From an uncultured virus (IMG/VR IMGVR_UViG_3300031247_000001) (taxonomy: Duplodnaviria; Heunggongvirae; Uroviricota; Caudoviricetes), in the IMG/VR virus record IMGVR_UViG_3300031247_000001: DNA of 64,000 bases; one strand, given 5' to 3'. Shown piece after piece: positions 7,960-59,974 of the stretch (the stretch's first letter is position 1; each line of letters begins with the position of its first letter). The notes under the pieces were generated by a model, which saw only the letters and a program-made list of their open reading frames with translations, did no database searches and was not told the DNA's origin. Both the position numbers and the translations under genes were made by a program.

Positions 7960-8508
7960 TCAAGCAATGACCGGGCTATCCCGCAAGCGCGCGAGCGCGG
8001 CGGCGACGATCTGACTCATGCGCGGCGCAGAAACTCCGAGCTCGCTCGCGATTTCTTTCTGCGGCTTCCCCGCGAAGAGCGCTTCCATCACTACTCGATG
8101 CCGCCTTGGCAGTCGCGCAAGCGCTGCGTGAAGAGACCGACACTCCTGGTTCTTCGCTGCGACCTCTTCCGGCGATGCCACCGACGACTGCAGCTCGAAA
8201 AAGTCGATCTCCTCGATCCAGCCGATCCGAGGCATCGGCTCCCCGCGCGCAGCCGAGTCCTGCCGCGCTCGTCGGCTGAGCCAATCCTGCCGCCGAAGCT
8301 CGTCAATGATGGCGCCGCGCACGCGCTTGCGCATGTACCATTCAAAACTCTCGTCCCGCCGCGCGTTGACTGCTTGCCAGAGACCCAGCATCGCTGCTGC
8401 TTCGAGATCTTCGACGAGCACATTGTGCGGCAGCTTCCGCTTGAAGCCCCGCGCGATGCGCAGAGCCGTCGGCTGATGCTGCCGGAACAGCTCCTCCGCA
8501 GCGGACAT
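7960..8508 (-). CDS. Sigma-70 family, FliA/WhiG-like sigma factor (regions 2 and 4)
   Basis: EDLEAAAMLGLWQA, RVRGAIIDELRRQDW and KEIASELGVSAPRMSQI motifs. Confidence 0.85.
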   Translation of the reverse strand: MSAAEELFRQHQPTALRIARGFKRKLPHNVLVEDLEAAAMLGLWQAVNARRDESFEWYMRKRVRGAIIDELRRQDWLSRRARQDSAARGEPMPRIGWIEEIDFFELQSSVASPEEVAAKNQECRSLHAALARLPRRHRVVMEALFAGKPQKEIASELGVSAPRMSQIVAAALARLRDSPVIA

Positions 8509-8512
8509 CGTC

Positions 8513-8845
8513 CTAGGGAGCGGCCTCATCCGAGCAAGCGTCAGCCGCGTCGCACGAGGTCGCGCGCGCCTGACAGCGTGGGTTCTCGGAGGCGTAGCCG
8601 GAGGACTCGACGTTGTGACAGACCGCTTCGCAGGGCTCAACCTTTGGAGTGGGATCACCCGCCGGGCAGTGGAGAACGCGCAGATGCACGCACATCGCCG
8701 CGCAGTCGGCGTCCGTGCCCGTCGGCAGCGGTCCGTTGTGGTTGACCGGAAGCGGCGGGATCGCCGAGCAGCCGTCTATGAGCGTCCACAAGACGACGAT
8801 GCCCGCCTTCACAGTCAGCCACCCGAGCACGCTCACTGCCTTCAT
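8513..8845 (-). CDS. Small Cys-rich exported/lipoprotein-like protein
   Basis: Hydrophobic N-terminus then GC, with multiple paired Cys; ATGA overlap with the peptidase stop. Confidence 0.55.
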   Translation of the reverse strand: MKAVSVLGWLTVKAGIVVLWTLIDGCSAIPPLPVNHNGPLPTGTDADCAAMCVHLRVLHCPAGDPTPKVEPCEAVCHNVESSGYASENPRCQARATSCDAADACSDEAAP

Positions 8846-31686: not shown

Positions 31687-32289
31687 ATGGATCTCCTCTC
31701 TGCCATCTTCCTCAAGCTCATGGGCATGACGCCCCACTTCACCGACACCGAAACCAAGGAGGCCCGCGCCACCCGCATGCACATCGTGGCGGCCTCCATC
31801 AACGACGCCACGCTCCGCGCGTCGTGCTCGGGCACGTTTGCAGTCGAAGACTGCAAACCCATCTTCTCCGATCGCCGCACCCTCGCCGGACTCCTCCTCG
31901 GCAAGGGCCACTTCGAGTCCGACTTCGCCGAGTACGTGCACGAGGGTCGCTGCACCGACGGTCCGAAAGGCGCCCGCTGCGACGCCGACAAGGACGGTCT
32001 TCCCCGCGCTCACGGCCCCTGGCAGCAGTGGAAGCAGTCGGTCTTCCCACAGGAGGACTGGGACAAGCTCGAGGGCTCGACGGCGGAAGCGACGGAGCTT
32101 GCCGCATGGCACGCGGCCGTGCTCCTGTCGGGCTCGCGCTCGACCTGCAAGCGGTACTTTCAGGGCGACGAGATCCAGGCGGCCATCGCGGGGTTCTCGG
32201 GGAACTGCATCATGGGCATGAAGCTCGACAAGATCGCTTACCAGGCTTCGGCGGTGAGGAAGATCGTGGCGACGCTGCCGGCGGAGTGA
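31687..32289 (+). CDS. Possible lysozyme/transglycosylase-fold protein
   Basis: GHFESDF and HGPWQ resemble the ES and G-x-Q motifs of lytic transglycosylases; similarity is weak. Confidence 0.35.
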   Translation: MDLLSAIFLKLMGMTPHFTDTETKEARATRMHIVAASINDATLRASCSGTFAVEDCKPIFSDRRTLAGLLLGKGHFESDFAEYVHEGRCTDGPKGARCDADKDGLPRAHGPWQQWKQSVFPQEDWDKLEGSTAEATELAAWHAAVLLSGSRSTCKRYFQGDEIQAAIAGFSGNCIMGMKLDKIAYQASAVRKIVATLPAE

Positions 32290-32291
32290 AG

Positions 32292-32696
32292 ATGATCTTC
32301 GGCCTTTGGCACGAAGGCTGGTGTTCCTTTCCCACCTCCCGTAACCCAGATCGGTTGGGGTACGGGTACTCCGGCACCGAAGAGGAAGCGCGCGTGGGGA
32401 AAGCGCAATTCGTGAGAGAGGGGCGACCCGCTTCCGAGTACCAAGTGGTGCTGTTCGATCACGAGCGCGAGCCGTCTGTGAGGGCGGGCAAGCCGTCGCC
32501 TGCTCAACTCGAGGCGCTCAAGCAGATCGAGTTGCATGGACGAGCGGCGCCCGGAACGTTTCGACCGACGCTCGCGGCGATCTACATCTACGGCTGGATC
32601 TGCTCGAACATCACAGTCGATGGGCAGGAGGTGCCGGGGCGGCCGATGCGGCTCACCATGGCAGGGAAAGCGTTCCTAGCAATACCCGCACCCTGA
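32292..32696 (+). CDS. Hypothetical protein with C-terminal wHTH-like segment
   Basis: SPAQLEAL...RLTMAGK. Confidence 0.4.
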   Translation: MIFGLWHEGWCSFPTSRNPDRLGYGYSGTEEEARVGKAQFVREGRPASEYQVVLFDHEREPSVRAGKPSPAQLEALKQIELHGRAAPGTFRPTLAAIYIYGWICSNITVDGQEVPGRPMRLTMAGKAFLAIPAP

Positions 32697-33296
32697 GACC
32701 GGTTTGCCCCCGCCGATCAGATCCGTAAACACCTGCTGCCCCATCGCGTAAGCCGGCGCCTCGAACGGATTGGTCTCCGGATGCCCCGCTGCCGCCGCGG
32801 CCTTGCCTTCGGAGTACTGCTCGTGCGTCATGCCCGTCGCGTACTCGGCGACGTGGAAGAGCTCGTGCGCGAGCGTGCTCATGGAGGTCGGGCTCGTGAA
32901 GACCACGTTCGGGTCCTTGAAATAGATGTCGCGATCGAGCGTCGCGGCGACGGCTCCCTCAGGGGCGGGCGCCCCGCCGCGCCACTGTCCCCATTGCCCG
33001 AGGTGGAGGATGGCGGCCGCCAAGAGCTCGGGGCGATAGTAGGCGCTGAGCACCGATTTTTCCCAATCCGTCAAGGTACGCGTCACCGATCCAGCGGTCA
33101 GGAACGCGCTCGGTGGCGGAGCGTTCCAGGCGGATACAGCCGGTCCCGTCGACTCGGTCCCCGGCGGCAACACCCCGGGGGGAGAAGCGGCCTGGGCCAC
33201 GATCTGCGCCTCCCGCTCTTTTCCCCACAGGTAGAGCCCGATGCCCGTCACGACCACGGCTCCAGCAGCGAGCTTGTAGCCGAGGGGGATCGTCAT
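32676..33296 (-). CDS. Membrane-anchored HExxH protein (DUF4157/eCIS-core-like)
   Basis: N-terminal TM, then AATLDRDIYF, TLAHELFHVAEY and NPFEAPAY. Confidence 0.7.
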   Translation of the reverse strand: MTIPLGYKLAAGAVVVTGIGLYLWGKEREAQIVAQAASPPGVLPPGTESTGPAVSAWNAPPPSAFLTAGSVTRTLTDWEKSVLSAYYRPELLAAAILHLGQWGQWRGGAPAPEGAVAATLDRDIYFKDPNVVFTSPTSMSTLAHELFHVAEYATGMTHEQYSEGKAAAAAGHPETNPFEAPAYAMGQQVFTDLIGGGKPVSGCGYC

Positions 33297-33306
33297 CCTG
33301 GGCAAA

Positions 33307-33342
33307 TTCCTACCAGTCGTGCCCGCACGGCCGCAAGTTTTT
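33307..33342 (-). promoter_or_regulatory. Conserved promoter AAAAAC-TTGCGG-N18-TAGGAA
   Basis: Recurrent motif. Confidence 0.5.
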
Positions 33343-33348
33343 GGAGCG

Positions 33349-33855
33349 ATGCCACCTTCGGGACCGAAAACTTTCGCTCCCGTCGCCCCCAGGCTATTCT
33401 CCCAGCCGATGAATGCCCCGCGCCCCATGTGGGACCACGGATTTGGCGACGCCGCCGCGCCCGCTCCGGCGCCGGCCCCGCTCCCCGTTGACCCATCCGC
33501 GCCGCCTCCTGCGCAGGCGGCCCCTCTCCCGCAGGCCCCGGCTCCGCTCGCCCCCCTGCCCGCTCCAGCACCCGCGGTGACCCCAGCTGCCGCGCGCCGT
33601 CGTGCCGGCGCGGCCATCGTGCTCACGGGCGTCGGCGTCGGCGCAGGCGCGCTCCTCGGTGGACTCTGGGGCGCCGGCTCCGGTCTCTTCTTCGCAGGCG
33701 CCCTCTCGAACGCCCTCCGCGCTCAAAGCCTCTGGCGCTCCGACTTCGCCGACGACCGCACCGAGGCCATGAAGGCCACGGTGATGACGGTGCTCGGCGT
33801 CGGCCTCGCTGGCTACCTCGGCTACCGCGCGCGTGAAGCGCGCGAGGACGACTGA
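33349..33855 (+). CDS. Pro-rich membrane protein (GFGD motif)
   Basis: WDHGFGDAA, a Pro/Ala linker and 2-3 hydrophobic helices. Confidence 0.65.
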   Translation: MPPSGPKTFAPVAPRLFSQPMNAPRPMWDHGFGDAAAPAPAPAPLPVDPSAPPPAQAAPLPQAPAPLAPLPAPAPAVTPAAARRRAGAAIVLTGVGVGAGALLGGLWGAGSGLFFAGALSNALRAQSLWRSDFADDRTEAMKATVMTVLGVGLAGYLGYRAREAREDD

Positions 33856-34208: not shown

Positions 34209-35048
34209 ATGGCTGAAGTTGTATTGATGGACGGGCAGTGGACGATGTGCCAGTTCCTGCGGCCGTTCGAGAATTTCGAGCGCGTCTATCAAGGCCAATC
34301 GGGAACGCTTCCGATCGCCTTCCCGGGCGACCTCGATCAGTTCGCGGTCGACGGCACGCCTGGGTACGACCCGAACCTCATCGCGGGCATCACGGTCCCC
34401 TACGGCTCTCGCGTGACGATTTGGATCCCGCAGACCATCGCCGACTACACCGTCAACGCGCTCTATCAGTACCAGATCCTCTGGCGCATGCGGAACGTGC
34501 GGGACTATCGCGAGGGGCAGACCAAGGGCGCGGTCTCCGCTTTGCAGAACTACACGGGCTACCACCTGACCACGAGCGGCTTTGGTCAACCCGAAGTGGC
34601 CAGCGCCCCCGTCACTTCCTCGAACGCTCGCTACTTCCTGCCGGGCGCGACGCGCACGGTGGCCTTCGAGCAGAGTGAGCCCGCGCTCGGCGATCCCGGG
34701 GTCATTCATCTCACCGGCGAACGCCTGCAGCCCACGATCAATCCGGTCTGGGTGCAGCCGCTCACTCCCAAGGGTAACCCCGCCGTCTGGCAGCAGGGCA
34801 CTTATGTGGGCTCCTCTCACGCGAACAACGGAGGCCCCTCGTGGCTCACGTTTACGTGCGACGCCGATGGCGACGAGATGAGCATCTTGGCCTACAAGAT
34901 CCCGCCCGGTGAAGGCCCCTACCCCGCCTGGGACTTCACGACATCCGATCCCGGAGATCTGAGCTTCTCCAACACCTTCGGCAACAGCAATGGCCAAAAC
35001 CGCGGCACCCCCTTCACTTCGATCTTGGTGACCACCGGCACTTCGTAG
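34209..35048 (+). CDS. Putative beta-rich virion structural protein
   Basis: AAGGA RBS; T/G/P/aromatic-rich; no recognisable family. Confidence 0.6.
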   Translation: MAEVVLMDGQWTMCQFLRPFENFERVYQGQSGTLPIAFPGDLDQFAVDGTPGYDPNLIAGITVPYGSRVTIWIPQTIADYTVNALYQYQILWRMRNVRDYREGQTKGAVSALQNYTGYHLTTSGFGQPEVASAPVTSSNARYFLPGATRTVAFEQSEPALGDPGVIHLTGERLQPTINPVWVQPLTPKGNPAVWQQGTYVGSSHANNGGPSWLTFTCDADGDEMSILAYKIPPGEGPYPAWDFTTSDPGDLSFSNTFGNSNGQNRGTPFTSILVTTGTS

Positions 35049-35150
35049 TGGCAGCTCGGCGCCGACGGAAGCCGAGACTTTGCCGTCCAGAGCGCGGGCC
35101 GTGATCGATGGCACATGCAAAGGGAGCTCGGCCCCTACGGAAGCTGGGAC
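35043..35150. CRISPR. CRISPR-like mini-array: 2 repeats and one 36-nt spacer
   Basis: Repeats at 35043-35078 (left end degenerate) and 35115-35150 match the consensus GTGCAAAGGGAGCTCGGCCCCTACGGAAGCCGAGAC; spacer 35079-35114. Confidence 0.75.
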
Positions 35151-35171: not shown

Positions 35172-35978
35172 ATGCTCCTCGATCCTTACCCCGGGCCTCG
35201 CGCTCCACAGATCAACACACTCTGGGTCGTGGTGCCGTTTTCTCGCCCGCACTACTTCGACAATGTGTGGCGAAACTTCGAGCGCCAACGCTTTCCAGGT
35301 AAGCGCCTCTTGATTGCTGCCAACGGCCTTGGGAGCGGCGCAGAGTCGATGTGGCGAGATCTCGGCGCCGACTTCATCGCCACCCGCGATCACCAATCCA
35401 CCGCCAAGAACGAAGCCCTCGCGTTCATTCGGAAGCACGGCGGCGGCTGCTTCTCGATCATGGACGACGACGACTGGTACGGCCCCGGCTACCTCGACGA
35501 GGTCGCGGGCTATGCCAAAGACTACGAGGCGCTCGGCAAGCAATGGCACTTCGTGTCGCTCGGTGAGGGGGATCCGGGTGAGGTGACGTTCGTGTGCGCC
35601 AATCGCCGCTACGCTAACCTCGATCCCGCCTCGTGGTTTACCGGCGGCACGATCAGCGGCTGGGCGGAGACGGCCAAGGACTTCCCCGTCGTCGCCGAGG
35701 GCGAAGACATTCAGTGGTGCCACGCGATGAAGCGCCAGGGCGCTCGCCTGCGCGGGCTGTCGATCTACCACTACCTCTACCGGCGCTCGTATGGAGGTGC
35801 CAAGCACGCGTGGCGCATCACCCGACAAGCATTTGAGCGAGCGCTCCGGGTCGGAGACGCGCTCGAGTTCCCGCTGACGGGGATGGGTCAGATCGATCTC
35901 GACATCGTGACGGGTGAAAAAAATCCGACCGAGTGTCGCCTGATCGGACAGCAGAAGTTCGTGGCGGTTCCGGCGTAA
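35172..35978 (+). CDS. Glycosyltransferase family 2-like (GT-A) protein
   Basis: VVVPFSRP, AKNEAL, IMDDDDWYGPGYL and GED. The ORF-track start at 35115 lies inside the repeat. Confidence 0.75.
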   Translation: MLLDPYPGPRAPQINTLWVVVPFSRPHYFDNVWRNFERQRFPGKRLLIAANGLGSGAESMWRDLGADFIATRDHQSTAKNEALAFIRKHGGGCFSIMDDDDWYGPGYLDEVAGYAKDYEALGKQWHFVSLGEGDPGEVTFVCANRRYANLDPASWFTGGTISGWAETAKDFPVVAEGEDIQWCHAMKRQGARLRGLSIYHYLYRRSYGGAKHAWRITRQAFERALRVGDALEFPLTGMGQIDLDIVTGEKNPTECRLIGQQKFVAVPA

Positions 35979-38525: not shown

Positions 38526-38594
38526 TTCCCGACTGGGTCAGTTTGTCAGGATGACCGAGGCAGGCAGCGCTATGCCCTCGGGATCCCGACAACC

Positions 38595-40787
38595 ATGACG
38601 AATCGAGCCAGACTCGGCGCTTCGGCGCGTGGCACACCCCGAGTCCCCCCTCTTACTGGTGGCGGATCGCAGGGCGCTCAAGGCGCGCCGGGCGCGCAGG
38701 GGTTTCAGGGCGCGCAGGGTTTCCAGGGCTCGGGCGGCGGCGCGCAGGGCGCGCAGGGAGCCCAGGGATTCCAGGGCGCGCAGGGGTTTCAGGGGTCGGG
38801 CGGCGGCGCGCAAGGTGCGCAGGGAGCCCAAGGCTTCCAGGGCGCCCAGGGCTTTCAGGGTAGCGGCTTCCAAGGTGCGCAGGGCGCGCAGGGCTTCCAA
38901 GGTGCGCGAGGAGCTCAGGGTTTCCAGGGCGCTATCGGACCGCAGGGCTTCCAGGGGCCGCAGGGAGCCCAAGGCTTCCAGGGGTCGCAGGGAGCCCAAG
39001 GCTTCCAGGGCGCGCAGGGCTTTCAGGGCGCTATCGGACCGCAGGGCTTCCAGGGTTTCCAGGGGGCGCAGGGCTTTCAGGGCGGCGGCTTCCAGGGCGC
39101 TCAAGGCGCGACGGGAGCGACGGGCACGCAGGGATTTCAAGGCGCAAACGGAGCTCAAGGCGCTCAGGGGTTCCAAGGATCGCAGGGTTTCCAGGGTCAG
39201 GCTGGCCCCGGCGGCGGCGCGCAGGGCGCTCAGGGTTTCCAGGGATCGCAGGGCGCGCAAGGCTTTCAGGGTGGCGGCTTTCAGGGCGCCCAAGGCGCGC
39301 AGGGCTTCCAAGGCGCGACGGGCGCGCAGGGCTTCCAAGGCGGCGGTTTCCAAGGTGCGCAAGGCGCGCAGGGTTTCCAGGGTCAGGCTGGCCCGCAGGG
39401 GTCGACCGGGCCGCAGGGCTTTCAGGGCTTCCAGGGCGCGCAAGGCTTTCAGGGTGGCGGCTTCCAGGGGGCGCAGGGCGCGACCGGCTCCCAAGGCTTT
39501 CAAGGTAGCGGTTTCCAAGGCGCGCAGGGCGCTACCGGGGTGCAAGGCTTTCAAGGCGCCCAGGGTTTTCAGGGTGCGACCGGGCCGCAGGGCTTCCAGG
39601 GATTTCAGGGAGCGCAGGGCTTTCAAGGTGGTGGGTTCCAGGGCGCGCAAGGCGCGACCGGCGTCCAAGGCTTTCAAGGCGCGCAGGGTTTCCAGGGTGC
39701 GACCGGGCCGCAGGGTTTCCAGGGATTTCAGGGAGCGCAGGGCTTTCAAGGTAGCGGTTTCCAAGGCGCGCAGGGCGCGACCGGGGTGCAAGGCTTTCAA
39801 GGCGCGCAGGGTTTCCAGGGTGCGACCGGGCCGCAGGGTTTCCAGGGTGCGCAGGGTTTTCAGGGTGGGGGGTTCCAGGGGGCGCAGGGCTCGACCGGCG
39901 CGCAGGGTTTTCAGGGAGCGCAAGGCTTCCAAGGCGGCGGCTTCCAAGGTGCGCAAGGCGCGACCGGGGTGCAAGGCTTTCAAGGCGCCCAGGGCTTTCA
40001 GGGTGCGACGGGCGCGCAGGGTTTCCAGGGATTCCAGGGCGCGCAAGGCTTTCAAGGCGGCGGCTTCCAGGGCGCGACGGGTACGCAAGGGTTCCAGGGG
40101 GCGCAAGGCTTTCAGGGCGGCGGGTTCCAGGGAGCGCAAGGCGCGACCGGGGTGCAAGGCTTCCAAGGCGCCCAGGGCTTTCAGGGTGCGACCGGGCCGC
40201 AGGGCTTCCAGGGATTCCAGGGGGCGCAGGGGTTTCAGGGCGGCGGCTTCCAGGGCGCTCAAGGCGCGACCGGCGTCCAGGGTTTTCAAGGAGCGCAGGG
40301 TTTTCAAGGAGCCCAGGGATCTCAAGGGTTTCAGGGATCGGGAGGCGGCGCGCAGGGCGCTCAAGGCGCGCAGGGCGCTCAAGGATTTCAGGGGTCGGGC
40401 GGCGGCGCGCAAGGCGCTCAAGGCGCCCAGGGGTTTCAGGGCGCGCAGGGTTTCCAAGGCGCGGGCGCGCAGGGCGCTCAAGGTGCCCAAGGCGGCGGCA
40501 GTGGGACGGGGCTCACCATCGTCGCGCGCGGGACAGTCACCGTCAACGGCTTCGGCGCCGCCTCTCTTGGTCCCTACACGAACGCCGCCGGTCTTGCGGT
40601 GACGCTCTTCCTCACGGTGGTGCCGACAGGCAACGGCGATGACTCGTCCTGGGGCGTGAGCTCGACGGGCGCCGCGATCAGCTGGAAGTTTCACGACTCG
40701 GGTTTCAGCGGCACGCAATACGGATTTACGATCACCAACAACAACGGCACCAACCGCACGATGTTCTACGCGGTTGTTGGGGTGTGA
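38595..40787 (+). CDS. Collagen-like fibre protein (about 610 aa of Gly-X-Gln repeats plus a small C-terminal beta domain)
   Basis: [12 protein letters not shown] triplets with GG interruptions. Confidence 0.9.
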
Positions 40788-44257: not shown

Positions 44258-44629
44258 CCACCCCTCGCCCCAAAAACTTGAGCCGCACCCGAAAGGCAGG
44301 GTAGTCTCGCCCCACTAGGTCGGTTTGGGCTCGGGCTGCTGCCCGCAGGCAAACGGGACGATCGAGCGGCGCGCAGATTTGCGCTTTCCCTCGGAGCGTC
44401 CCTTGACCATGGACACCAGCAGCGTTGCCAGCCGAAATATCGGGGCAGTAGCCACCCTCCTCGGTGCGCCCAATTCCCTCGAAAACGTCGGCACGCAAAC
44501 CCTCGACGACGGTTGCTGGGCTTACGTGCAGTCCGAGCTCAAGCACTACGAGCTCCACAAAGAATCGACTGCCCCGTCCAATCCTCCCTTCGTCATCGTG
44601 CCGATCTGCGGCGTCGGTCGCTGGGTGCC
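44258..44629 (+). repeat. Duplicated promoter + leader + N-terminal anchor module, copy 2
   Basis: High identity to 42586-42958. Confidence 0.85.
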
Positions 44630-47600
44630 TGGCGGTGGCGGCGCGCAGGGCGTGCAAGGGGCTCAGGGTCCGCAGGGCGCGCAGGGTTTTCAAGGTGGCG
44701 GCTTCCAAGGCGCGCAAGGCGCAGTCGGCACGCAGGGCTCACAAGGTGCGCAGGGCGCACAGGGGCGCCAAGGCTTCCAGGGGAACGGCACGCAAGGCGC
44801 GCAGGGATCTCCGGGCGCGCAAGGCCCGAGCGGCGGCGCGCAGGGCGCTCAAGGCGCGAGCGGCGTGCAGGGTTTCCAGGGCGCGCAGGGGTTTCAGGGC
44901 GGCGGCTTCCAAGGTGCGCAGGGCCAGACCGGCGCTCAAGGCGCTGGCGGCGGCGCGCAGGGCGCTCAAGGCGCGAGCGGCGTGCAAGGTTTCCAGGGCG
45001 CGCAAGGCTTTCAGGGTGGCGGCTTCCAGGGCGCGCAAGGCAATCCCGGCGCGCAAGGAGCGACGGGCACGACCGGCGCGCAGGGCAGCCAAGGGGCGGC
45101 GGGCACGACCGGCGCGCAGGGTAACACCGGCGCGCAGGGATCCCAGGGCAATCAAGGCGCGAGCGGCGTGCAAGGTTTCCAGGGAGCGCAAGGCAACCAA
45201 GGGACGCAAGGCGCGGGCTTCCAGGGCGCGCAGGGCTTTCAGGGCGCGCTCGGTGTCACCGGCGCGCAGGGTTTTCAGGGCTTCCAGGGCGGCGGCTTTC
45301 AGGGCGCGCAGGGATCTTCGGGCGCGCAGGGTCCAGGCGGCGGCGCGCAGGGCGCTCAAGGTGCGCAAGGCACGCAGGGCGCTCAGGGCACGCAGGGCGC
45401 GGGCTTCCAGGGCGCTCAAGGCTCGACCGGCACGCAGGGTGGCACCGGCGTGCAGGGTTTCCAGGGCGCTCAAGGCTTTCAAGGCGGCGGCTTCCAAGGC
45501 GCGCAGGGCGGCACGGGCCCGCAGGGTCCCGGCGGCGGCGCGCAAGGCGCGCAGGGCGCAGCCGGCACGCAAGGCTTTCAAGGCGCGACGGGTGTGCAAG
45601 GCTTCCAGGGAGCGCAGGGCTTCCAGGGAGCGCTCGGTGTCACGGGCGCGCAGGGCTTCCAGGGGTCGCAGGGCTTCCAGGGTGGCGGCTTCCAAGGCGC
45701 ACAGGGATCGTCCGGCGCGCAAGGTCCCGGCGGCGGCGCGCAGGGCGCTCAGGGCGCATCCGGCACGCAAGGCTTCCAGGGAGCGCAAGGTTTTCAGGGC
45801 GGCGGGTTTCAGGGCGCGCAAGGTCAGACCGGCGCGCAGGGCGCGGGTGGCGGCGCGCAAGGCGCGCAGGGCGCTCAGGGTAGCGGCGGCCAGCTCAATC
45901 CCGCCAACGTCGCGGCGCTCCAAGCGATCAACGCGACCTCGCTCCCGTCGGGCACGCTCGCCGACACGGGCGTCGTCGGCGATCTCTATCGCCTGAACAA
46001 ATCCCCGACCGCCGGTGAGACCGCAGGCATCGACGCCACCAACGTCGTTGCCGTGACGACGCCAGCGGGCAGCGTCTTCGAGCGGCTCGGTCTCGCGAAC
46101 AAGTCGTTTGCGTTCGTGGGCGCATGGTTTATCGACGGCACGGCTGGCAACGACACGAACGATGGTCTCACGAGCGGCACGGCGCTCAAAACGCCGAGCG
46201 AGCTCGCTCAACGCCTGAGCCCCGGTGGACAGCTCTGCAGGATCCAGCAGTCAGTCACCGTCCAGATCGCTAACGTCCCCGCGGGCGAGATCAACCTCAA
46301 CCTGGACGCGCCGCCAGGATCTGGGTTTGCCTTCACGATCCAGGGTGATTTTACGAGCAGCGCGCCCATCACGCTCGCCACCGTCGTCGATACGGTCGCC
46401 TCCGCATCCCCCGTGCGAGGTCGGCTTACCACCGCGAGCGGGACGTTCGTGGACAAGGCCCGCATTCGATCGACCAGTGGCGCGGCGGTTGGAGCGATTA
46501 CTTATTCCACGGGGCTCAACTCCACGACGGATACGTGGGTTAAGGCCTGGCAACTCGGCCTGGCCAACGCGCAAACGAACATCGCTCCGGGCACCACTTG
46601 TGTCGTGGACACGCTGGTATCCACGCTCACGATTGCCAGGATCAAGCTCGGTCGCAATATCGCTCTCCGCGTCAACGACTTGAAGCTCCCGAACGGGATC
46701 GAGGTTGACAACTTCGACAGCGGTAGCGCCTCCGATTTGATACAGCAGTGCGAGCTCGGATCGGCCAGCACGACGTGTCGGCTCTTGGGCAATGTGCAGT
46801 TCATCAACTGCAACGGGGTCAACGCTCTAAACACTGGCGTCACCAACACGCCGCAGCCGATCTTCCGAGGCTGCGTGCTCGGCGGTACGTTCTTTTCGGG
46901 CGCAGGCGCGGCGGCCGCTTGCCCGAGCATGCAGGGCGGAACCAATTGCTTCAACGGAGGCGCGCTCTTTCTGGGCGGCAATACGGCGACCGCCATGGCG
47001 AGCCATGGACTCGATACTGCCGTCGAGTGGGTCAATGGCGTCGCGGCGGTCGCGATCACGGTGAAGAAGGGCGCCATCCTCGGGATCCGAGGACAGCAAT
47101 TCGGGTTTGGAGGGACTTACTCGATCGGCATCCAAATGGAGAGCGGCAGCACTGCCGTAACGGACTCAGCGTCGCTCGTTGCCATCCCCGCAACGCAGCA
47201 GCTGTCGATGACGGGGCACAATCTCAACTACTCGGACATCCCCGCCAATACGTTTTTCCCACGAGCCGCGTGCGTGTTCGCGATCAACCCCGATCCGGGC
47301 GCGACGAGCGGATCGCAAGGGTTTCAGGGCGCGCAAGGCGTGCAAGGTGCGCAGGGTTTCCAGGGCTCAGGCGGCGGAGCTCAGGGCGCACAAGGCGCTC
47401 CCGGCGTCGCTGGATCGCAAGGCTTCCAGGGCGCGACGGGCGCAAGCGGCGGCGCGGGCTTCCAGGGCGCGCAAGGCGCCTCCGGGCCGCAGGGCTTCCA
47501 GGGCGGCCTCGGTCAGGGCGGCGCGCAGGGATCGCAGGGTCGTCAAGGCGCGACCGGCACCGCGGGCGCCGCGGGCACGCAAGGCTTCCAGGGCGCGCAG

Positions 47601-49730
47601 GGCGGCGGCTTCCAAGGCGCCCAGGGCGCGCAGGGTCAGACGGGTCCGGGCGGCGGCTCGCAAGGCGCGCAGGGCGCGACGGGCGTGCAGGGCTTCCAGG
47701 GCGCGCAGGGCTTCCAGGGTGGCGGCTTCCAGGGCGCCACCGGATCGCAGGGCGCGACCGGCACGCAAGGCTTCCAGGGCGCGCAGGGTTTCCAAGGTGG
47801 CGGGTTTCAAGGCGCGCAGGGTGCAACCGGCGTGCAGGGCTTCCAAGGCGCGCAGGGTTTTCAAGGCGGCGGCTTCCAAGGGGCCACCGGATCGCAGGGC
47901 GCGACCGGCACGCAGGGCGGCCAGGGCGCGCAAGGCGCGACCGGCGCTGGCACGCAGGGCGCGCAAGGCGCGACCGGTACGCAAGGCTTTCAAGGCGCGC
48001 AGGGCTTTCAAGGCGGCGGCTTCCAAGGCGCCACCGGATCGCAAGGCGCGACGGGCACGCAGGGATCGCAAGGCGCGCCCGGATCGGGATCGCAAGGCGC
48101 GCAGGGCGCAGCGGGCACGCAGGGCTTCCAGGGCGCGCAAGGTCGACAGGGGAGCACCGGCACGGCAGGCACCGCTGGCGCTCAAGGCGCGCAGGGTAAC
48201 ACGGGCGCGACCGGCACGACGGGCGCGCAGGGCGCCTCTGGCCCGGCGGGCGTGCAAGGCTTTCAAGGTGGCGTCGGCCCCGGCGGCGCGCAGGGATCGC
48301 AGGGTCGCCAAGGCGCAACCGGCGTGCAAGGCGCGGTCGGCCCGCAGGGATTCCAAGGCGCGACGGGCGCCGGCACGCAGGGCGCGCAGGGTCGCCAAGG
48401 CTTCCAGGGCGCCGCGGGCGTGCAGGGCGCCCAGGGCTCGTCGGTGGCGCCGCTCACGCAGGTCTTCTACGTCGACTCCAAGAATACGGGCGCCGCGAAC
48501 GGCTCCATCCAGGCGCCCTTCGCGTCGATGACGGCGGCGCTCGCTGTGGTGCCTCTCAATGTGCCGACGACGTTCTTGGTGACGCCGCACACGTACGCCG
48601 AGACGATCACGATTACTAACGCGCAGGCGGACATCACCATCGTTGGGCTCGGGCCGCCGACGGATCAGTCGGTGATCTTCACCGGCGCGTGCCATGCGTC
48701 GTTCTTGTCGTCGGACTCGACGCTCACGCTCCAAAACATCCTGGTTGAGGGCGCGCTCACCGAGACTTCTGCTTCCGATCTCGGCACGACCTTCGCGCTC
48801 GTCGACACGCACATCGGCGGCAACGTCACCGGCACCGGCTCGAACGTCGGCAGCACCAAGCTTCGGATGGGCTCGGCCCTCCCGTACGAAAGCGGCAGCG
48901 GCACCGGCGTAGTGATCGACGGCGACCTCACGACCTTCGAGCAGGTGCTCGCAGAGAACGCCAGCATCGCGAATTTCGCCGGCCCAACCGCCGACAATCA
49001 GCAGTTCGCGAACCGCTTTACCAACTGCTACTTCGGCTCCGCAAACCTCGGGGGCCCATCGATCTGCGAGGGCTGCGTCTTCCCAAGTGGACTGGCCTCA
49101 GCGGCGTCCTCGACCACCGCGAGCTACCTCACGGACTGCGTCATCGACGGCGACATGCTGTCATCGACGGGCCACTCGCTTTATGTAAACGGGGGCCTCA
49201 TCGGAGCGGGCGCCCCCATCCCGCCCCTCGCGCTCAATTGGCACGGGATCGTCAATTTCCGAAACACCCTCTTCGGTCCGTTTTCTAGCGGTCACGTCGC
49301 AATCACGGCGCCGCTCACGACCCTCCAGCTCGACAGCGCGAGTGAGCGAAGTCTCTTTTCGACGACCGGAGGCAAGGCGACGCTCTCGGCGGATTCGGTC
49401 GGGATCTACGCGCTCGATCAGGGAGAGTCGGATGCGGTGCAACTCGCGGACTCGTCCTCGGGATACGGCGTCGCTGGGATCGGTCGGCTGTTTCTGCCGT
49501 CGACCAAGCTCACGGCCGACCGCACGATTCAGTTGGCGGCGGGCGGCGGGTCTGGGCTCGATATGCTGCCGCTCGATGTCTACGGCACCAACGGTCACAC
49601 GCTGACGGTGCAGTTCAATTCGGTGACCATCAAAACGATCGTTAGCTCGCACGTGCCCGCTCGGTACTTCTTCCAAGTATCAGAAGACAACACGGTCGTG
49701 GTTTACATCGGAGTGGAGAGCTTCCAATGA
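44409..49730 (+). CDS. Giant collagen-like fibre with two globular (beta-helix-like) modules
   Basis: Two Gly-X-Gln tracts; [14 protein letters not shown] and FYVDS...GSIQAPF motifs. Confidence 0.88.
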
Positions 49731-52642: not shown

Positions 52643-53230
52643 TTGATGACGAAGCGAGCGACGGCTCGGTCGGTGCCGCCGCCGGCCCCCCCAGAGCGAG
52701 GGCAGTGCCTCCCGCGCGTGGAGGAAGAGCCCCTCAGCGCTGAAGAGGCGTACGTCGTCCTCGAGCCTTACTTCGAAGTGGTCCGCGAGGAGTACCTCGC
52801 TCAGGGCTTCAAGAAGTGTAAACGCACGCGTCTCTTCATCGCGCCCGCGATGCACGACTCGCCGCGCCACTTTGGCGCCTGCAAAGACGATGGGTCTGCG
52901 ATCTTGCTCGCCCCCGAGCTCGCGGACGTGGCCGACACCGTGATGCTCGCGATCATGGCGCACGAGTTTGGGCACGCGACCGATTTCCTCTACCCGGGCG
53001 AGTTTGTGCTCGGGCGGAGTGGCCCGGCGCTGCGGCGGCAGCGCGCGGAGGTCGAGGAAAAGCAGTGGAGCAAATGGCTGAAAGCCTGGCACCGCCGCGA
53101 CGAAGACGTGGTGGAGATCACGGCGGACGCCATCGCTGAGCGCGTGATGGGGGTGCCCTACGGCTACCAGGGACCCTGCTGGATCCAAAGCTTTGACGCC
53201 GCAGAAGCGCGGCCCATGGGACTCCGATGA
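52643..53230 (+). CDS. HExxH metallopeptidase-like protein
   Basis: IMAHEFGHATD...VEITADAIA. Confidence 0.7.
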   Translation: MMTKRATARSVPPPAPPERGQCLPRVEEEPLSAEEAYVVLEPYFEVVREEYLAQGFKKCKRTRLFIAPAMHDSPRHFGACKDDGSAILLAPELADVADTVMLAIMAHEFGHATDFLYPGEFVLGRSGPALRRQRAEVEEKQWSKWLKAWHRRDEDVVEITADAIAERVMGVPYGYQGPCWIQSFDAAEARPMGLR

Positions 53231-53442
53231 CCGACGAATCTCCGCAAACGTTTCCGACCATCGAAGCAGTCATCGCAGCTCACATCCGCTCGGTGCTCAT
53301 CGCTACCCGTTGGAACTGCTCCGAATCCGCCCGGATCCTCGGCATCGATCGGCGCACGATCTACAGGCAGATCGCGCGCTACAAGATCGAGCGACCCCCG
53401 GAAGAGAAAAGCCCCGCGCCGAGCTCGGCCTGCGGGGAGTAG
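53227..53442 (+). CDS. Fis-type HTH protein
   Basis: HIRSVLIATRWNCSESARILGIDRRTIYRQIARY. Confidence 0.85.
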   Translation: MTDESPQTFPTIEAVIAAHIRSVLIATRWNCSESARILGIDRRTIYRQIARYKIERPPEEKSPAPSSACGE

Positions 53443-53453
53443 ACTTCTCTCGC

Positions 53454-54155
53454 ATGCCAGTGGCAGCGCCTGAACAGCGCGGAAGTAACCCGCGTCCCGG
53501 TGACGATCCCAACGAGGTCGTCAAGCAGTGGACGCCGCTCGTGAAGATGCTGGCGCGCTCGTACAGTAAGCACCTCGGTCGCTGGTACGAGTTTGATGAT
53601 CTCGTCGCGATTGGTCAGGAGGCGCTCTGGGGGTGCATTTCGTATTGGAGAGAAGACGGCGGCGCCATCTTCAAGACCTTTGCGTACCATGCGATCGTGC
53701 ATCGGTTTGAGGCGATCAAAAAGTACTGGAGGAGCAACAAGCGTCGGGGGTCGATCTACTCTGACAGCATCGAAGACCCCGGCGAAGGTCGCCCGCGGAC
53801 CGAGCTCAGCATCGAGGCCGATGACCAGGCGCTCGATCACCAGCGCGCTCTCTCGGGCCTCCGGCAAGCATTTGGTGGGCTACAGCCCCGCGAGGGTTAC
53901 GTGCTAGAGGAGCGCTTCCTCGGCGATCGGTCTCTAAAAGAAGTCGGGCAGGCGCTCGGGGTTTCCCGGGAGCGGGCGCGTCAACTCGAGCGGCGCGGGC
54001 TCCAGAAATTGCGGAGATCGCTCATGGAGATCATCCCGGAGCTCCGGGATGCGCCTCCGGTCTCGAGCGGAGCCAGGGCCCGCTCGAGGACGGACGCCGA
54101 GGTGGGGCGCTGCAATCAGCAGCGCGCCCGACGAAAAGTTGCCCTCGGGCCCTGA
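53454..54155 (+). CDS. Sigma-70 family sigma factor (regions 2 and 4)
   Basis: DDLVAIGQEALW, FKTFAY and SLKEVGQALGVSRERARQLERRGLQKLR. Confidence 0.88.
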   Translation: MPVAAPEQRGSNPRPGDDPNEVVKQWTPLVKMLARSYSKHLGRWYEFDDLVAIGQEALWGCISYWREDGGAIFKTFAYHAIVHRFEAIKKYWRSNKRRGSIYSDSIEDPGEGRPRTELSIEADDQALDHQRALSGLRQAFGGLQPREGYVLEERFLGDRSLKEVGQALGVSRERARQLERRGLQKLRRSLMEIIPELRDAPPVSSGARARSRTDAEVGRCNQQRARRKVALGP

Positions 54156-57097: not shown

Positions 57098-58462
57098 TCA
57101 CCATGGCCGCTCCTTCAGCTGCGGGAACATCGCCATCGCCCGCAATCGATCGACCTCCCCGAGCTCTACCTGCCGCTCCTCGGCGGTGCGGTTTGATGCC
57201 CAGCTAGCTTGCAGGTTGTAGACGCTCAAGATCTGATAGATGCACGTGTAGCGCGCGCCCGCCATCTCGAGCAGCGGCCACATGACGGCCTTGTCGATGG
57301 CGAGCGAGACCCAAGAGCCGTCGGGACGAAATAGGCAAGAAGGCGCGACGCCCGGACCGTTCGCGAGCTTCTTTGCTAGACCCGCCCGGAACGTCTTCAG
57401 GTGGGTCGCTCGCCAGTCCGAGTACCGCACGCGTGCGCCGAGCGCATAGGGAGCCGCAAACCCGACCTCCCCATCGGAAAACATGAATTGTCCGTAGGTG
57501 AGCCAAGGCTCGGCCTTCGCGGCATAGGCGAGCGCCAAGACCTCGAGCGCGCGATCGTGCGCTAGCCAGTCGTCGCCATCGAGCCAGACGATGACTTCGT
57601 CGTCGGGGAGATCTTTCCAAACCGACCAGCAGTTTTCGAGCGCGGAGAGGCGCTCGGGGTTTCGGATCACGGTGAGCTGCTGATCCGTTTCCATATTGAA
57701 GAGCGCGATCTCGCTCGTGCGGTCCTCGCTCTTGGCGTCGATGACGACGTGGGTGTAGTTCCGGAAAGTTTGATCGAGCACGCTGTCGAGGCACTTCTGG
57801 ATCCAGCGCTCGGCGTTGAGCGCGGTCGACACGATCGTCATGTGCAGGGGCTTACCGCTCTTCACGAGCACGCAGAAATTGTGGCGCCCCATCCAGTGCT
57901 GGGCCTGGTGCACCTCCATGAGTGAGCGGAGCTGCGCCGTGCGCGCCTCGTCCAGCGTCCATCCATGAATGCGAAAGCGCGTGAGCCAGTACTCGGGCGG
58001 CTGCAAGTTGATGTGGCCCTCCCATTCCTGACCGGGCGCTGCCGCCGACCACACGATCACGTCCGTCGCGTGCACTGCGACATTTTCGACGATGGCGAGC
58101 GAATGCTGCTCGGAGATGTGCTCGGCCGTCTCGGTGCAGATCACGCAGGAATACTTGGCAACGGCGCCAGCCCCTTGCAGGGTTTGGGTCAAGTCAAACC
58201 GTTGCACCTCGACCCCCGGCTCGATCATCTCGATCGCGTGCGGCGAGTACTCCGCCCCGATCGTGCCCTCCCACCCGAGCTCGATCAGGCGAGCGGTCTG
58301 TAGGCCGATACCGCACCCGATGTCGAGGCAGCTCGGTTGCTGCCCGACTACCGCGTGGATGCAATCGGCGAGCTTTCGGTAGTTGTCGCGGCACTCGCGC
58401 ATTTGCTCGAAAAATGCCTGGTCATGCGGGTCTCGATTGGCTTGATTTTCAGTGTTTCCCAT
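57098..58462 (-). CDS. SAM-methyltransferase fused to GT2 glycosyltransferase
   Basis: LDIGCGIG, ETAEHI and GHINLQ; then NAERWIQKCLDSVLDQT and WLDGDDWL. Confidence 0.85.
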   Translation of the reverse strand: MGNTENQANRDPHDQAFFEQMRECRDNYRKLADCIHAVVGQQPSCLDIGCGIGLQTARLIELGWEGTIGAEYSPHAIEMIEPGVEVQRFDLTQTLQGAGAVAKYSCVICTETAEHISEQHSLAIVENVAVHATDVIVWSAAAPGQEWEGHINLQPPEYWLTRFRIHGWTLDEARTAQLRSLMEVHQAQHWMGRHNFCVLVKSGKPLHMTIVSTALNAERWIQKCLDSVLDQTFRNYTHVVIDAKSEDRTSEIALFNMETDQQLTVIRNPERLSALENCWSVWKDLPDDEVIVWLDGDDWLAHDRALEVLALAYAAKAEPWLTYGQFMFSDGEVGFAAPYALGARVRYSDWRATHLKTFRAGLAKKLANGPGVAPSCLFRPDGSWVSLAIDKAVMWPLLEMAGARYTCIYQILSVYNLQASWASNRTAEERQVELGEVDRLRAMAMFPQLKERPW

Positions 58463-58536
58463 TGCGTGAGACAGTAGCGTGCTATCTTCGGGAAGGAAAG
58501 CCGAAAGCCCGCAGTAGCACGGGGGAGGAGATCGCC

Positions 58537-59295
58537 ATGAAGAGTTTGTTTTTGGTTTGCCTCATCGTCGCCATGACTGCCTGCGGCGCGCCGTTCACGG
58601 CGGAGTCGTTTACCGATAGCGGGAGCGCCGGTGCCATCGGGGCTCCGGCGGCACCGAGCGCAGGCGCGGCCGGCGCCGAGCCGCGCGAGGATGCCGGCGG
58701 AGCGACGAGCATCCCGCTCGAGTCAGCTGGCGCCGCCGGCGCCGCCGGCGCGCCTGACCTAGGCTCCGCCGGCGCGCCGAGCGTCGACCCGCCGCCGCTC
58801 TACACGCCGCCCCCGTGCTCCACCGACCAGAACGTCACCGGCGGCTACGACGGATCGCTCAGCGCCGCCCCTGCCTGCCTCCGCACCAAGGAGGCCCTCA
58901 ACACCGTTGCTTGTGCCAACTGGGACGGGCGATCGATCACCGTCAACGGCGCCGCGGCGACCTGCGGCGTCCCGCTCTCCTTCCCGGAGAGCGTCGATGG
59001 CTTCACGTACATCGATCTCGGCCCGGGGACGAGCTCTGGCGTCGCGCTCCGGTGGTTTTTGACAGCGCCCGCCCCAAACCCCTGCGACGCGCGTTGGTGG
59101 ACCCAGGGCGACCTCTACGCCCCGAACGAAATCATGCTCGATGTCTGCGACGCGCCCGGGAGCGAAAAGAGCTGCGAGCTCGGCAAGACCTACGCCTTCT
59201 CGTGCCTCGACACCCCGACCAGCCGGTGCACCAGCACGGGGCCCGGCGCAAGCGGCTGGACTTCGAGCTGGGCGCTGGTTACCCTCTGCAAGTAA
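58537..59295 (+). CDS. Cys-rich lipoprotein
   Basis: GGAGG RBS; lipobox MTAC; Gly/Ala linker; Cys-rich domains. Confidence 0.75.
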   Translation: MKSLFLVCLIVAMTACGAPFTAESFTDSGSAGAIGAPAAPSAGAAGAEPREDAGGATSIPLESAGAAGAAGAPDLGSAGAPSVDPPPLYTPPPCSTDQNVTGGYDGSLSAAPACLRTKEALNTVACANWDGRSITVNGAAATCGVPLSFPESVDGFTYIDLGPGTSSGVALRWFLTAPAPNPCDARWWTQGDLYAPNEIMLDVCDAPGSEKSCELGKTYAFSCLDTPTSRCTSTGPGASGWTSSWALVTLCK

Positions 59296-59521
59296 AGGCA
59301 GCGCGACGCCTACGGAAGTCGCGACCACGCGGTGCTGGGGCAAAGGGAGCTCGGCCCCTACGGAAGCCGAGACAAGCCATGACCGAGAAACGACCGCCAG
59401 GGTTTAGACAAGTGCAAAGGGAGCTCGGCCCCTACGGAAGCCGAGACAAATCCTGCCGGGCGGCTACCTGGCCTATCTCGACACGGTGCAAAGGGAGCTC
59501 GGCCCCTACGGAAGCCGAGAC
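59290..59521. CRISPR. CRISPR-like mini-array: 4 repeats with spacers of 12, 38 and 38 nt
   Basis: Repeats at 59290-59325 (diverged), 59338-59373, 59412-59447 and 59486-59521; the last two are identical, GTGCAAAGGGAGCTCGGCCCCTACGGAAGCCGAGAC. Confidence 0.88.
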
Positions 59522-59593
59522 CTGCTAGGTTTGCGAGGGGGCTAGCGGCCAGAATTTGACTTCGGATCCGGTACCCGGGTAGCCTCTCGTTCA

Positions 59594-59974
59594 ATGGCCG
59601 TTGCAATTGGATCCCGCGTCGCGCTCAAGACTCTTGGACAAGGTCTGGCCATCGGCCAGGTGACCGCTCAGCCGCCCGTCTTTGGCGTGTCGCAGACGGC
59701 CTCCCCGGGCCCTTGCGTCATCGACTGGGAGAACGGCGCTCAAGCCACGGTGCCGCTCGCGGTGCTGGACGAACTCCTCGGGGCCAACCCGACTACGCTC
59801 GGTCTCATCGGGCAGGTCGTCAACGTCGAGGGGCAGTCGGCGGCGTACAATGCCCTCGTGGTCGATGCCTACAACCGCAACGGCACTCAAGAGCTCGTGC
59901 TCGTCAAGACCCTAAACAACGGGACGTACTTCGAGCTCGACGCCACCACCGTCGTCCCGCAACCGAACCTCTGA
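59594..59974 (+). CDS. Putative virion protein
   Basis: Preceded by TTGACT-N18-TAGCCT (59556-59585); beta-rich. Confidence 0.6.
   Translation: MAVAIGSRVALKTLGQGLAIGQVTAQPPVFGVSQTASPGPCVIDWENGAQATVPLAVLDELLGANPTTLGLIGQVVNVEGQSAAYNALVVDAYNRNGTQELVLVKTLNNGTYFELDATTVVPQPNL

Follow-up and report, generated by a model that had tools for sequence, protein, structure and literature searches.

Why would an array of CRISPR repeats on a phage genome open with a repeat that has changed at nine positions and that is set apart from the next repeat by only 12 nt? The question is raised by a locus near the right end of a 64,000-nt stretch of DNA from an uncultured member of the Caudoviricetes (IMG/VR record IMGVR_UViG_3300031247_000001), referred to here as the window. 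A sequence-only reading had described a diverged repeat with compensatory stem changes next to a 12-nt spacer at positions 59290–59337, and had proposed that it is a regulatory or decoy guide. The description is borne out. As to what the variant is, there is little doubt that it is the 5′-terminal, diverged and structurally intact repeat of a leaderless orphan mini-array of type V-M (Cas12m) on a phage genome. It is probably a working short guide or an RNA boundary signal, and not a product of decay.

The array and its first unit

The array runs on the plus strand. The variant first unit occupies a 36-nt frame at 59290–59325 and is followed by the 12-nt mini-spacer CACGCGGTGCTG (59326–59337), canonical repeat 1 (59338–59373), the 38-nt spacer 1 (59374–59411), which resembles a gene start (ATG ACC GAG AAA ...), canonical repeat 2 (59412–59447), the 38-nt spacer 2 (59448–59485) and canonical repeat 3 (59486–59521), the final one in the array. 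The canonical repeats are regularly spaced, with a period of 74 and 38-nt spacers; the first interval, from the variant unit to repeat 1, is 48. Repeat 1 differs from repeats 2 and 3 solely at position 2 (G for T), beginning GGG and not GTG. A separate assembly contig from a public run covers 58900–59369 with zero differences, and the junction between the variant, the 12-mer and repeat 1 is therefore not an oddity of one assembly.

In order, the variant unit consists of a 5′ tail (AAGTAA), a pseudoknot strand (AGGC), AG, a stem strand (CGCGAC), the loop GCCTACGGAA, the second stem strand (GTCGCG) and AC. The nine changes that distinguish it from the canonical repeat lie at unit positions 1, 2, 4, 10, 14, 17, 19, 30 and 33. 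Those at 1, 2 and 4 overlap the end of the upstream open reading frame (ORF; 58537–59295), that is, its last codon and its TAA stop (59293–59295). In the structured region, all six changes are compensated. The changes at 14:33 (T:A to G:C) and 17:30 (G:C to A:T) make two compensated stem pairs, and the change at 10:19 (G:C to C:G) makes a third, in a pseudoknot, where AGGG becomes AGGC in the 5′ flank and CCCT becomes GCCT in the loop. Pair 10:19 joins the 5′ flank to the first loop base and had escaped the sequence-only reading, which took the loop as kept; this is true of nine of its 10 bases, the changed one being the first. All 10 proposed pairs form in both the variant and the canonical repeat. 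By our own arithmetic, six substitutions within positions 7–36 would fall as three Watson-Crick-compensated pairs of the 10 with P ~7.5e-6.

The phage and its relatives

The window has a G+C content of about 64% and encodes DnaB, a DnaA C-terminal domain protein, ThyX, a pol III beta clamp and two sigma-70 family proteins, as well as an 1801-aa collagen-repeat protein and many small ORFs without a family. We read it as part of a phage, high in GC and found in rhizosphere metagenome runs, with related viral contigs of 110–135 kb. Scans of the window gave no Rfam matches and no tRNA genes, and the INPHARED phages yielded only short matches to a DnaQ-like gene and none at the array.

The exact canonical repeat has no match in IMG/VR or in one genome each of 185,579 species, and a loose pattern spanning both repeat forms has a single match in IMG/VR and none in the same 185,579 species-representative genomes. 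With a degenerate repeat pattern, three contigs were found in IMG/VR: G001 (135,429 bp, with direct terminal repeats), G002 (110,728 bp, linear) and G003 (a fragment of 41,280 bp). The window is collinear with G002, its closest relative, at 72–78% nucleotide identity, and matches G001, mostly inverted, at about 65–75%.

In each of these contigs, a long array directly adjoins the gene for a protein of 488–530 aa. The three effector proteins are homologous (72% and 41% identity) and belong to a family with 53 members at E up to 0.001 in a large protein collection, all named "hypothetical protein" only, several of which sit on contigs of 126–136 kb. A 29-member profile of the family finds solved Cas12m chains with an E of 4e-89, and Cas12m2 with one of about 1e-40, and PADLOC labels the effectors Cas12u1 (the former type name) at 1e-48 to 1e-53. 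Among the 29 aligned effectors, the RuvC positions hold N in 28, E in 26 and D in all 29. NED triads were reported for Cas12m clades 3 and 4 by Omura et al., who also described DNA binding and transcriptional silencing by Cas12m2. According to Bigelyte et al., several Cas12m orthologues bind DNA without cutting it and silence, processing takes place within the repeat, and the proteins work without a tracrRNA and with T- and C-rich PAMs. The contrast drawn in the sequence-only reading, between variant-repeat RNAs that repress and ordinary guides that cut, would not be peculiar to the variant unit, since every guide of a Cas12m system would silence.

No adaptation genes were found near the phage arrays examined. 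The relatives also hold many dispersed solo units, often 0–30 nt upstream of start codons; unit-to-gene distances from G003, where GC3-based gene calls proved too crude, are not drawn on. A G002 spacer matches the cas12m gene of its own contig at 36 of 38 positions, with the 5′ flank TTC, and a spacer of locus L058 agrees with a site on its own contig in 35 of 37 positions, where the 5′ flank is TCC. Judged from these alignments, the self-matching spacers of the repeat family would be compatible with a non-cutting effector, and their T/C-rich flanks would agree with Cas12m PAMs.

How much of this system does the phage of the window itself possess? A loose repeat pattern finds six units in the window against 0.01 expected, four at 59.3 kb and two in a second mini-locus at 35043–35150 on the plus strand. 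There, a unit at 35043–35078 encloses the TAG stop of the gene at 34209–35048 and is followed by a 36-nt spacer and a unit at 35115–35150, the ATG of the next gene lying at 35172. A cas12m homologue is absent from the 64-kb window at E up to 1e-3. In the best-holding public run, which contains 92% of the sampled words of the stretch, a 34-nt piece of the canonical repeat has a depth of ~352 (about 300–360), against ~16.7 for the phage, and two other contigs, with depths of 16.7–16.8, end in leader-like sequence followed by the repeat. These contig ends resemble the leader beside cas12m in G002 and the leader in L059. From these depths, the canonical repeat would be present in ~20 further copies, and leader-bearing arrays would exist at phage abundance. 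The variant region, on the other hand, has a depth of 16.7 in this run and is single-copy, which argues against the possibility, raised with the original observation, that the variant is simply the standard repeat of a second host array. By synteny with G001, the putative cas12m region would fall past the right end of the window, and the window's own phage may encode such an effector.

RNA structure of the repeat family

The units follow a common plan: G12 and A35, a helix of 13–18 with 29–34, a flank–loop pairing of 7–10 with 19–22, and a terminal C36. The Cas12m2 crRNA described by Omura et al. is built on a scaffold of 36 nt that combines a G:A pair, a 6-bp helix and a pseudoknot and ends in a C read by its base. 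If the RNA is recognized here as it is there, the variant would retain the base-read positions (A11, G12, A35, C36 and the loop ACGGAA) and would have changed only at positions read through backbone or shape.

Does the pairing hold across the family? The alignment comprises 90 of the 91 distinct units from the window, the three contigs and 54 metagenome stretches, one outlier (L032:3721-3756) being omitted. In these 90 units, 91.9% of the cells are paired against 82.1% in shuffles, and none of the 500 shuffled sets does as well on any of the five measures used. Sliding the partner by 1–3 columns lowers the pairing to 27–42%. Pair 10:19 is C:G in 43 units, G:C in 35 and U:A in three; pair 17:30 is G:C in 63 and A:U in 18; and pair 14:33 is U:A in 72, U:G in 14, C:G in three and G:C in one. 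The unit finder demanded four of five fixed motifs, which cover pairs 8:21 and 9:20, and at least five of six stem pairs, and stem pairing was thus partly selected for; when units were picked by motif only, without the stem rule, five or more of the six stem pairs form in 76 of 81. Pair 10:19 was never part of the selection. Both of its forms coexist inside single loci, at 59 kb and at 35 kb in the window and in L033, so the switch occurred more than once.

A covariance model from homologous loci had been proposed as a check on the compensatory changes. Built from the 90 distinct units, in which the stem and the pseudoknot pair covary, it finds exactly six units in the window, at 48–56 bits, the best non-unit match reaching 11.4 bits. 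The variant, with its three compensated pairs, scores 48.3 bits (E 1.3e-9), the canonical repeats 55–56 bits (55 for repeat 1 and 56.1 each for repeats 2 and 3), and the units of the second mini-locus 49.4 and 49.7 bits. Selection on RNA structure, as the sequence-only reading had proposed, is upheld by the six compensated changes of the window, by the family-wide covariation of stem and pseudoknot and by a further compensated stem, CATGGT/ACCATG, in G002; random, non-compensatory decay is not what the relatives display. Two folds that include the spacer were also considered. One in which the 12-mer pairs with the unit's 5′ half did no better than shuffles and is not kept in G002, and the minimum free energy fold of the variant unit plus the 12-mer was no better than shuffles (z −0.42).

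Transcription and the homologous loci

The ORF upstream of the array (58537–59295, plus strand) encodes 252 aa with a lipoprotein-like N-terminus, MKSLFLVCLIVAMTACG, and its TAA stop lies inside the variant unit. A longer version of the upstream frame (58414–59292) has no Pfam or NCBIfam match, and in IMG/VR the protein matches G002 only. Homologues of the ORF precede unit clusters in G002 (locus L021) and in L046. At the G002 locus, the first unit starts 36 nt past the ORF stop, is strongly diverged (26.6 bits) and has a fully paired stem; it is followed by a 15-nt spacer, which has eight of 12 bases in common with the window 12-mer, and then by ordinary units. In L046, where the same ORF and the same downstream gene surround the cluster, the first unit is ordinary, encloses the TAA stop and is followed by a spacer of ordinary length. 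The stop of the upstream gene lies inside or at the first unit in six clusters (window 59290, window 35043, G001, G003 27874, L046 and L033 5872).

From where would such an array be transcribed? Arrays beside cas12m carry a conserved leader; the window array has none. A generic scan of the stretch from the ORF to the array gave no sigma-70 promoter and no terminator. A promoter-like motif, TTGAC(T), about 18 nt, TAGCCT, and then the ATG of the next gene (59594), lies downstream at 59556–59596 on the plus strand; the generic sigma-70 scan did not pick it up, and it also precedes the homologous gene in L041, L046 and G001. In the window and in these three loci, the conserved motif occurs only after the array, and it marks the start of the next transcription unit. 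Because no promoter or terminator was found between the ORF and the array, the array lacks a leader and the motif is found only behind it, the array would be transcribed by read-through from the upstream gene.

Short first spacers and the recurrence of the 12-mer

Ordinary arrays of the family have spacers of 33–45 nt, with a mode of 36–38. On the other hand, the 5′-terminal spacers of small diverged clusters at about nine loci measure only 10–15 nt, and their sequences are unrelated. The first spacer measures 12 nt in the window, 15 nt in G002, 13 nt in L032, 11 nt in L033, 11 nt in L037 and 15 nt in L059; a second locus in L033 has spacers of 10 and 15 nt, and the cluster between the upstream gene and cas12m in G001 has one of 15 and then one of 25 nt. 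In L064, three short spacers lie within an irregular cluster, and a short spacer is thus not always the first of its cluster. That short first spacers recur with unrelated sequences would be expected of a structural linker no less than of a guide.

The sequence of the window's mini-spacer does recur once. With the GGG that follows it, the 12-mer forms the 15-mer CACGCGGTGCTRGGG. The L033 cluster of two units lies between homologues of the window genes at 31687–32289 and 32676–33626, and hence at a different locus, and its second unit is directly followed by CACGCGGTGCTAGGGG, a match at 14 of 15 positions. There, the 15-mer follows the second unit and does not occupy the position of the short linker. 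No further copy was found among 76 loci, and a pattern of GAC plus the 15-mer had no match in IMG/VR. The units that precede the shared 15-mer in the window and in L033 differ at four compensated pairs, which makes recent copying of the whole module unlikely.

As a check on a regulatory role, it had been suggested that promoters, those of cas genes above all, be searched for the 12-mer next to a PAM. No convincing target of 12 to 15 nt with a PAM was found in the window, in G001, G002 or G003, or upstream of the relatives' cas12m genes; the best matches in these four sequences carry two or more mismatches, fall within coding sequence, show inconsistent 5′ flanks and are nowhere near a cas12m start. 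The proposal of a regulatory short guide gains from the recurrence of the 15-mer after the L033 unit and from that of short first spacers, and is left without the PAM-flanked target among these sequences that it would predict. Two other matches were set aside: a site in L033 agreeing at 14 of 17 positions, about 100 nt upstream of the promoter-like motif of a neighboring gene, was not counted as a target, and the 15 nt after the third unit upstream of the G001 cas12m, which match copies of the phage promoter-like motif with inconsistent 5′ flanks, were not counted as targeting. The two full-length spacers of the window have no match among the window, the three contigs and the metagenome loci. 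A seed from spacer 1 hits seven loci in IMG/VR, where only the searched 18-mer matches (23–26 of 38 over the spacer); these hits were taken as chance.

What does the first unit do?

The reading that we rank first, tentatively and as somewhat less than an even chance, is that the variant works as a Cas12m scaffold, is transcribed together with the upstream gene and yields a short silencing guide. Read-through transcription from the lipoprotein-like gene would carry the array, which has no promoter or leader of its own. A Cas12m encoded elsewhere in the phage genome, as in the relatives, would bind the hairpin–pseudoknot scaffold, and processing inside the next repeat would release a crRNA-like RNA whose guide consists of the 12-mer and the first bases of that repeat, about 15–17 nt. 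This short guide would then direct the cleavage-free silencing of a putative conserved target. Since the optimal guide–target duplex of Cas12m2 is 17 bp (Omura et al.), a 12-nt spacer read into the next repeat would give a guide of nearly full length. It is this arithmetic, together with the shared 15-mer, that argues for a short guide.

Ranked second is the possibility, a weaker one, that the unit is a boundary or processing hairpin, a Cas12m-binding site at the stop codon for which the 12 nt are linker only. Two scaffolds lying close together might then start processing of the read-through transcript, separate the mRNA from the crRNAs or cap the 3′ end of the mRNA. The case for it is built on the recurrence of unrelated short first spacers (10–15 nt, against 33–45 nt in regular arrays) and on the overlap with stop codons in six clusters. 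The solo units that so often stand 0–30 nt before start codons point in the same direction, as does the dissimilarity of the G002 mini-spacer (8/12), and Omura et al. suggest that processing by Cas12m2 may involve a transient asymmetric homodimer. However, a linker leaves unexplained why another phage should have 14 of the 15 nt behind a unit at a different locus, and the short spacers of L064, being inside their cluster, do not obey a strict first-position rule.

Could the first unit have lost its role? An older spacer of full length, like the one that follows the L033 unit, might have been cut short when a deletion joined it to the next repeat, with the pairing of the first unit a relic of past selection. 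Repeat 1 begins GGG instead of GTG, as would be expected of a deletion junction inside GGGG, terminal repeats of CRISPR arrays commonly diverge, and the phage arrays examined have no adaptation genes nearby. We nonetheless regard a remnant as unlikely. A decaying terminal repeat should collect substitutions with no regard to pairing, but in the window all six in the structured region are compensated, and in the G002 homologue full pairing has survived still more changes, which requires continuing selection in at least two lineages. Moreover, even the shortened guide would have 15–16 of the roughly 17 nt used by Cas12m2. By far the least probable is an RNA anti-CRISPR decoy, the other half of the earlier proposal, in which the variant would mimic the repeat of a host or rival Cas12m and soak up unproductive complexes: solitary repeat units in viruses are reported to act as RNA anti-CRISPRs, and the relatives do hold many dispersed solo units, but these repeats go with a Cas12m that the phage lineage itself encodes, no host array with the repeat was found in the species-representative bacterial genomes (185,579 species), and the variant unit sits in an array with ordinary spacers.

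If the short silencing guide is taken up again and joined to the boundary hairpin, a wider picture can be drawn, speculative and to our minds rather doubtful. Soil phages might run a programmable control system of their own, in which a nuclease-inactive miniature Cas12m works with hairpins derived from repeats; it would amount to a gene-expression code made from CRISPR parts. The hairpins would come as primary arrays, as leaderless mini-arrays at stop codons with tandem units 10–15 nt apart, and as solo units just ahead of start codons. Conserved targets, of the host or of the phage, would be silenced by short guides like the 12-mer, which has an effective length of about 15 nt and is shared by different phages; boundary hairpins would let Cas12m cut or mask polycistronic mRNAs.

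Comparison with known systems

The locus and its relatives resemble type V-M systems (Cas12m2, MmCas12m, GoCas12m and MsCas12m) in the 36-nt scaffold with its G:A pair, 6-bp helix, pseudoknot and terminal C, in the T/C-rich 5′ flanks of the two good protospacers, in the effector profile (E 4e-89) and in belonging to a type without a reported tracrRNA. They differ in several respects. The relatives' effector, at 488–530 aa, is smaller than the solved Cas12m chains (about 577–614 aa), has an N-E-D triad and is encoded on phage contigs of 110–135 kb, with none in the window itself, and the repeats are heterogeneous and occur in orphan mini-arrays and as dispersed solo units.

A diverged repeat with a short guide-like stretch, carried on a mobile element and belonging to a silencing-capable system, also recalls CreR, CreA, scaRNA, tracr-L and the viral Cracr RNAs. 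For these, however, it has been demonstrated that the guide partly matches a cas or toxin promoter next to a PAM, and no such match was found for the window 12-mer. The viral regulatory guides are reported to be 17–21 nt, against 12 nt between repeats in the window. Regulatory mini-arrays and viral crRNA-like repressors have been described for types I, II and V-A, and no regulatory crRNA-like RNA was found for type V-M in the literature consulted. Cas12m does not occur in the text of the viral Cracr preprint, and in Shmakov et al. it appears only in one sentence of the discussion and the reference to it.

The window array is short, lacks cas genes and is viral, and in this it is similar to the virus-borne mini-CRISPR arrays and solitary repeat units, to which the solo units of the relatives also correspond. 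Those that are known, as far as the published accounts consulted go, copy the repeat of the host and use the host's Cas proteins; here, the repeat belongs to an effector of the phage lineage.

V-M systems are reported from plasmids and from some prophages. A preprint of September 2026 (bioRxiv 10.64898/2026.09.14.751636) describes MvCas12m of myxophage MV-1, claimed as the first phage-borne Cas12m; like the effectors of the relatives, it is encoded by a phage beside an array, with no adaptation genes. It differs from them in its size of 610 aa, in its D-E-D triad, where the relatives have N-E-D, and in its one array of eight spacers. The available portion of that preprint describes no orphan arrays, solo units or short first spacers, and a search of the literature on Cas12m with phages or self-targeting found no orphan V-M mini-arrays, solo units or short first spacers.

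Set beside these systems, the locus and its relatives represent a compact N-E-D Cas12m lineage in large soil phages, whose repeats have spread to gene boundaries in the form of orphan mini-arrays and solo units. The structure of the repeat RNA has been maintained by compensatory change, and some spacers of the family match genes of the phage itself. Should the short first spacers be guides, they would provide a natural minimal-guide design for a DNA binder of 480–530 aa; should they be processing signals, they would represent a Cas12 that acts on the mRNAs of its own genome.

Repeat units outside the array

Besides the array at 59 kb, the window carries a second locus of the same repeat family, made up of two units (35043-35150). 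The TAG stop of the gene at 34209-35048 lies inside the first unit, the spacer between both units is 36 nt long, and the ATG of the next gene follows 21 nt after the end of the second. At the homologous place, the relative sequence L033 has three diverged units with spacers of 10 and 15 nt, and G002, a related viral contig in which an array adjoins cas12m, has one weak unit. Solo units, that is, single dispersed repeats, are scattered across the phage genome in G003, another such contig, with several sites in L013 and L014, and further ones are found in other stretches from relatives (L025, L029, L036, L043, L046, L057 and L061). In many cases a ribosome-binding site or start codon follows 0-30 nt after the unit; one unit (L014:16323-16358; 38.4 bits under the covariance model) falls within the cas12m reading frame of G003.

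Three units on the minus strand of the related contig G001 (L007:8946-9122), with spacers of 15 and 25 nt, occupy the whole gap from the TGA of the upstream gene, which falls within the first unit, to the start of cas12m. In G002 there are no units between the upstream gene and cas12m. A 127-kb relative (L034, L032 and L038, ~2945-3029) has only two units, 13 nt apart, at the position taken by cas12m and the array in G001 and G002; it looks like the effector locus was lost and the tandem pair left behind.

Promoter-like motifs and other genes

The 15 nt after the third G001 unit recur, with 13-15 of 15 identical, at several promoter-like sites in G001. A conserved promoter-like motif of the phage group is present in the window at 59556-59596 and at ~1190-1250. 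In it, an A/T-rich segment containing either TTGAC or GTTGC is followed after 17-18 nt by GTAGCCT or TAGCTT, and this second part lies ~10 nt ahead of the ATG. The window encodes two sigma-70 family proteins (7960-8658, minus strand; 53193-54155, plus strand), and G001 one more. It also encodes an 1801-aa protein with collagen triple-helix repeats (44325-49730) and, on the opposite strand, a second long repeat-rich frame (38538-40718); each cross-matches many places in G001 and G002.

Spacer matches

A metagenome contig of 85 kb carries a long array in the stretch L058, one spacer of which has a 35/37 match on its own contig and in G003 (L024:3528-3561 and L013:12278-12311; 5' flank TCC). Spacer 1 of the window (59374-59411) resembles a gene start (ATG ACC GAG AAA CGA ...), as if directed at a translation start region. 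In the G002 array adjoining cas12m, a spacer (~L016:166-203) matches the cas12m coding region of G002 itself at 36 of 38 positions (L016:1850-1887, 5' flank TTC) and that of G001 at 33 of 38. This suggests autoregulation or the targeting of cas12m in rival phages.
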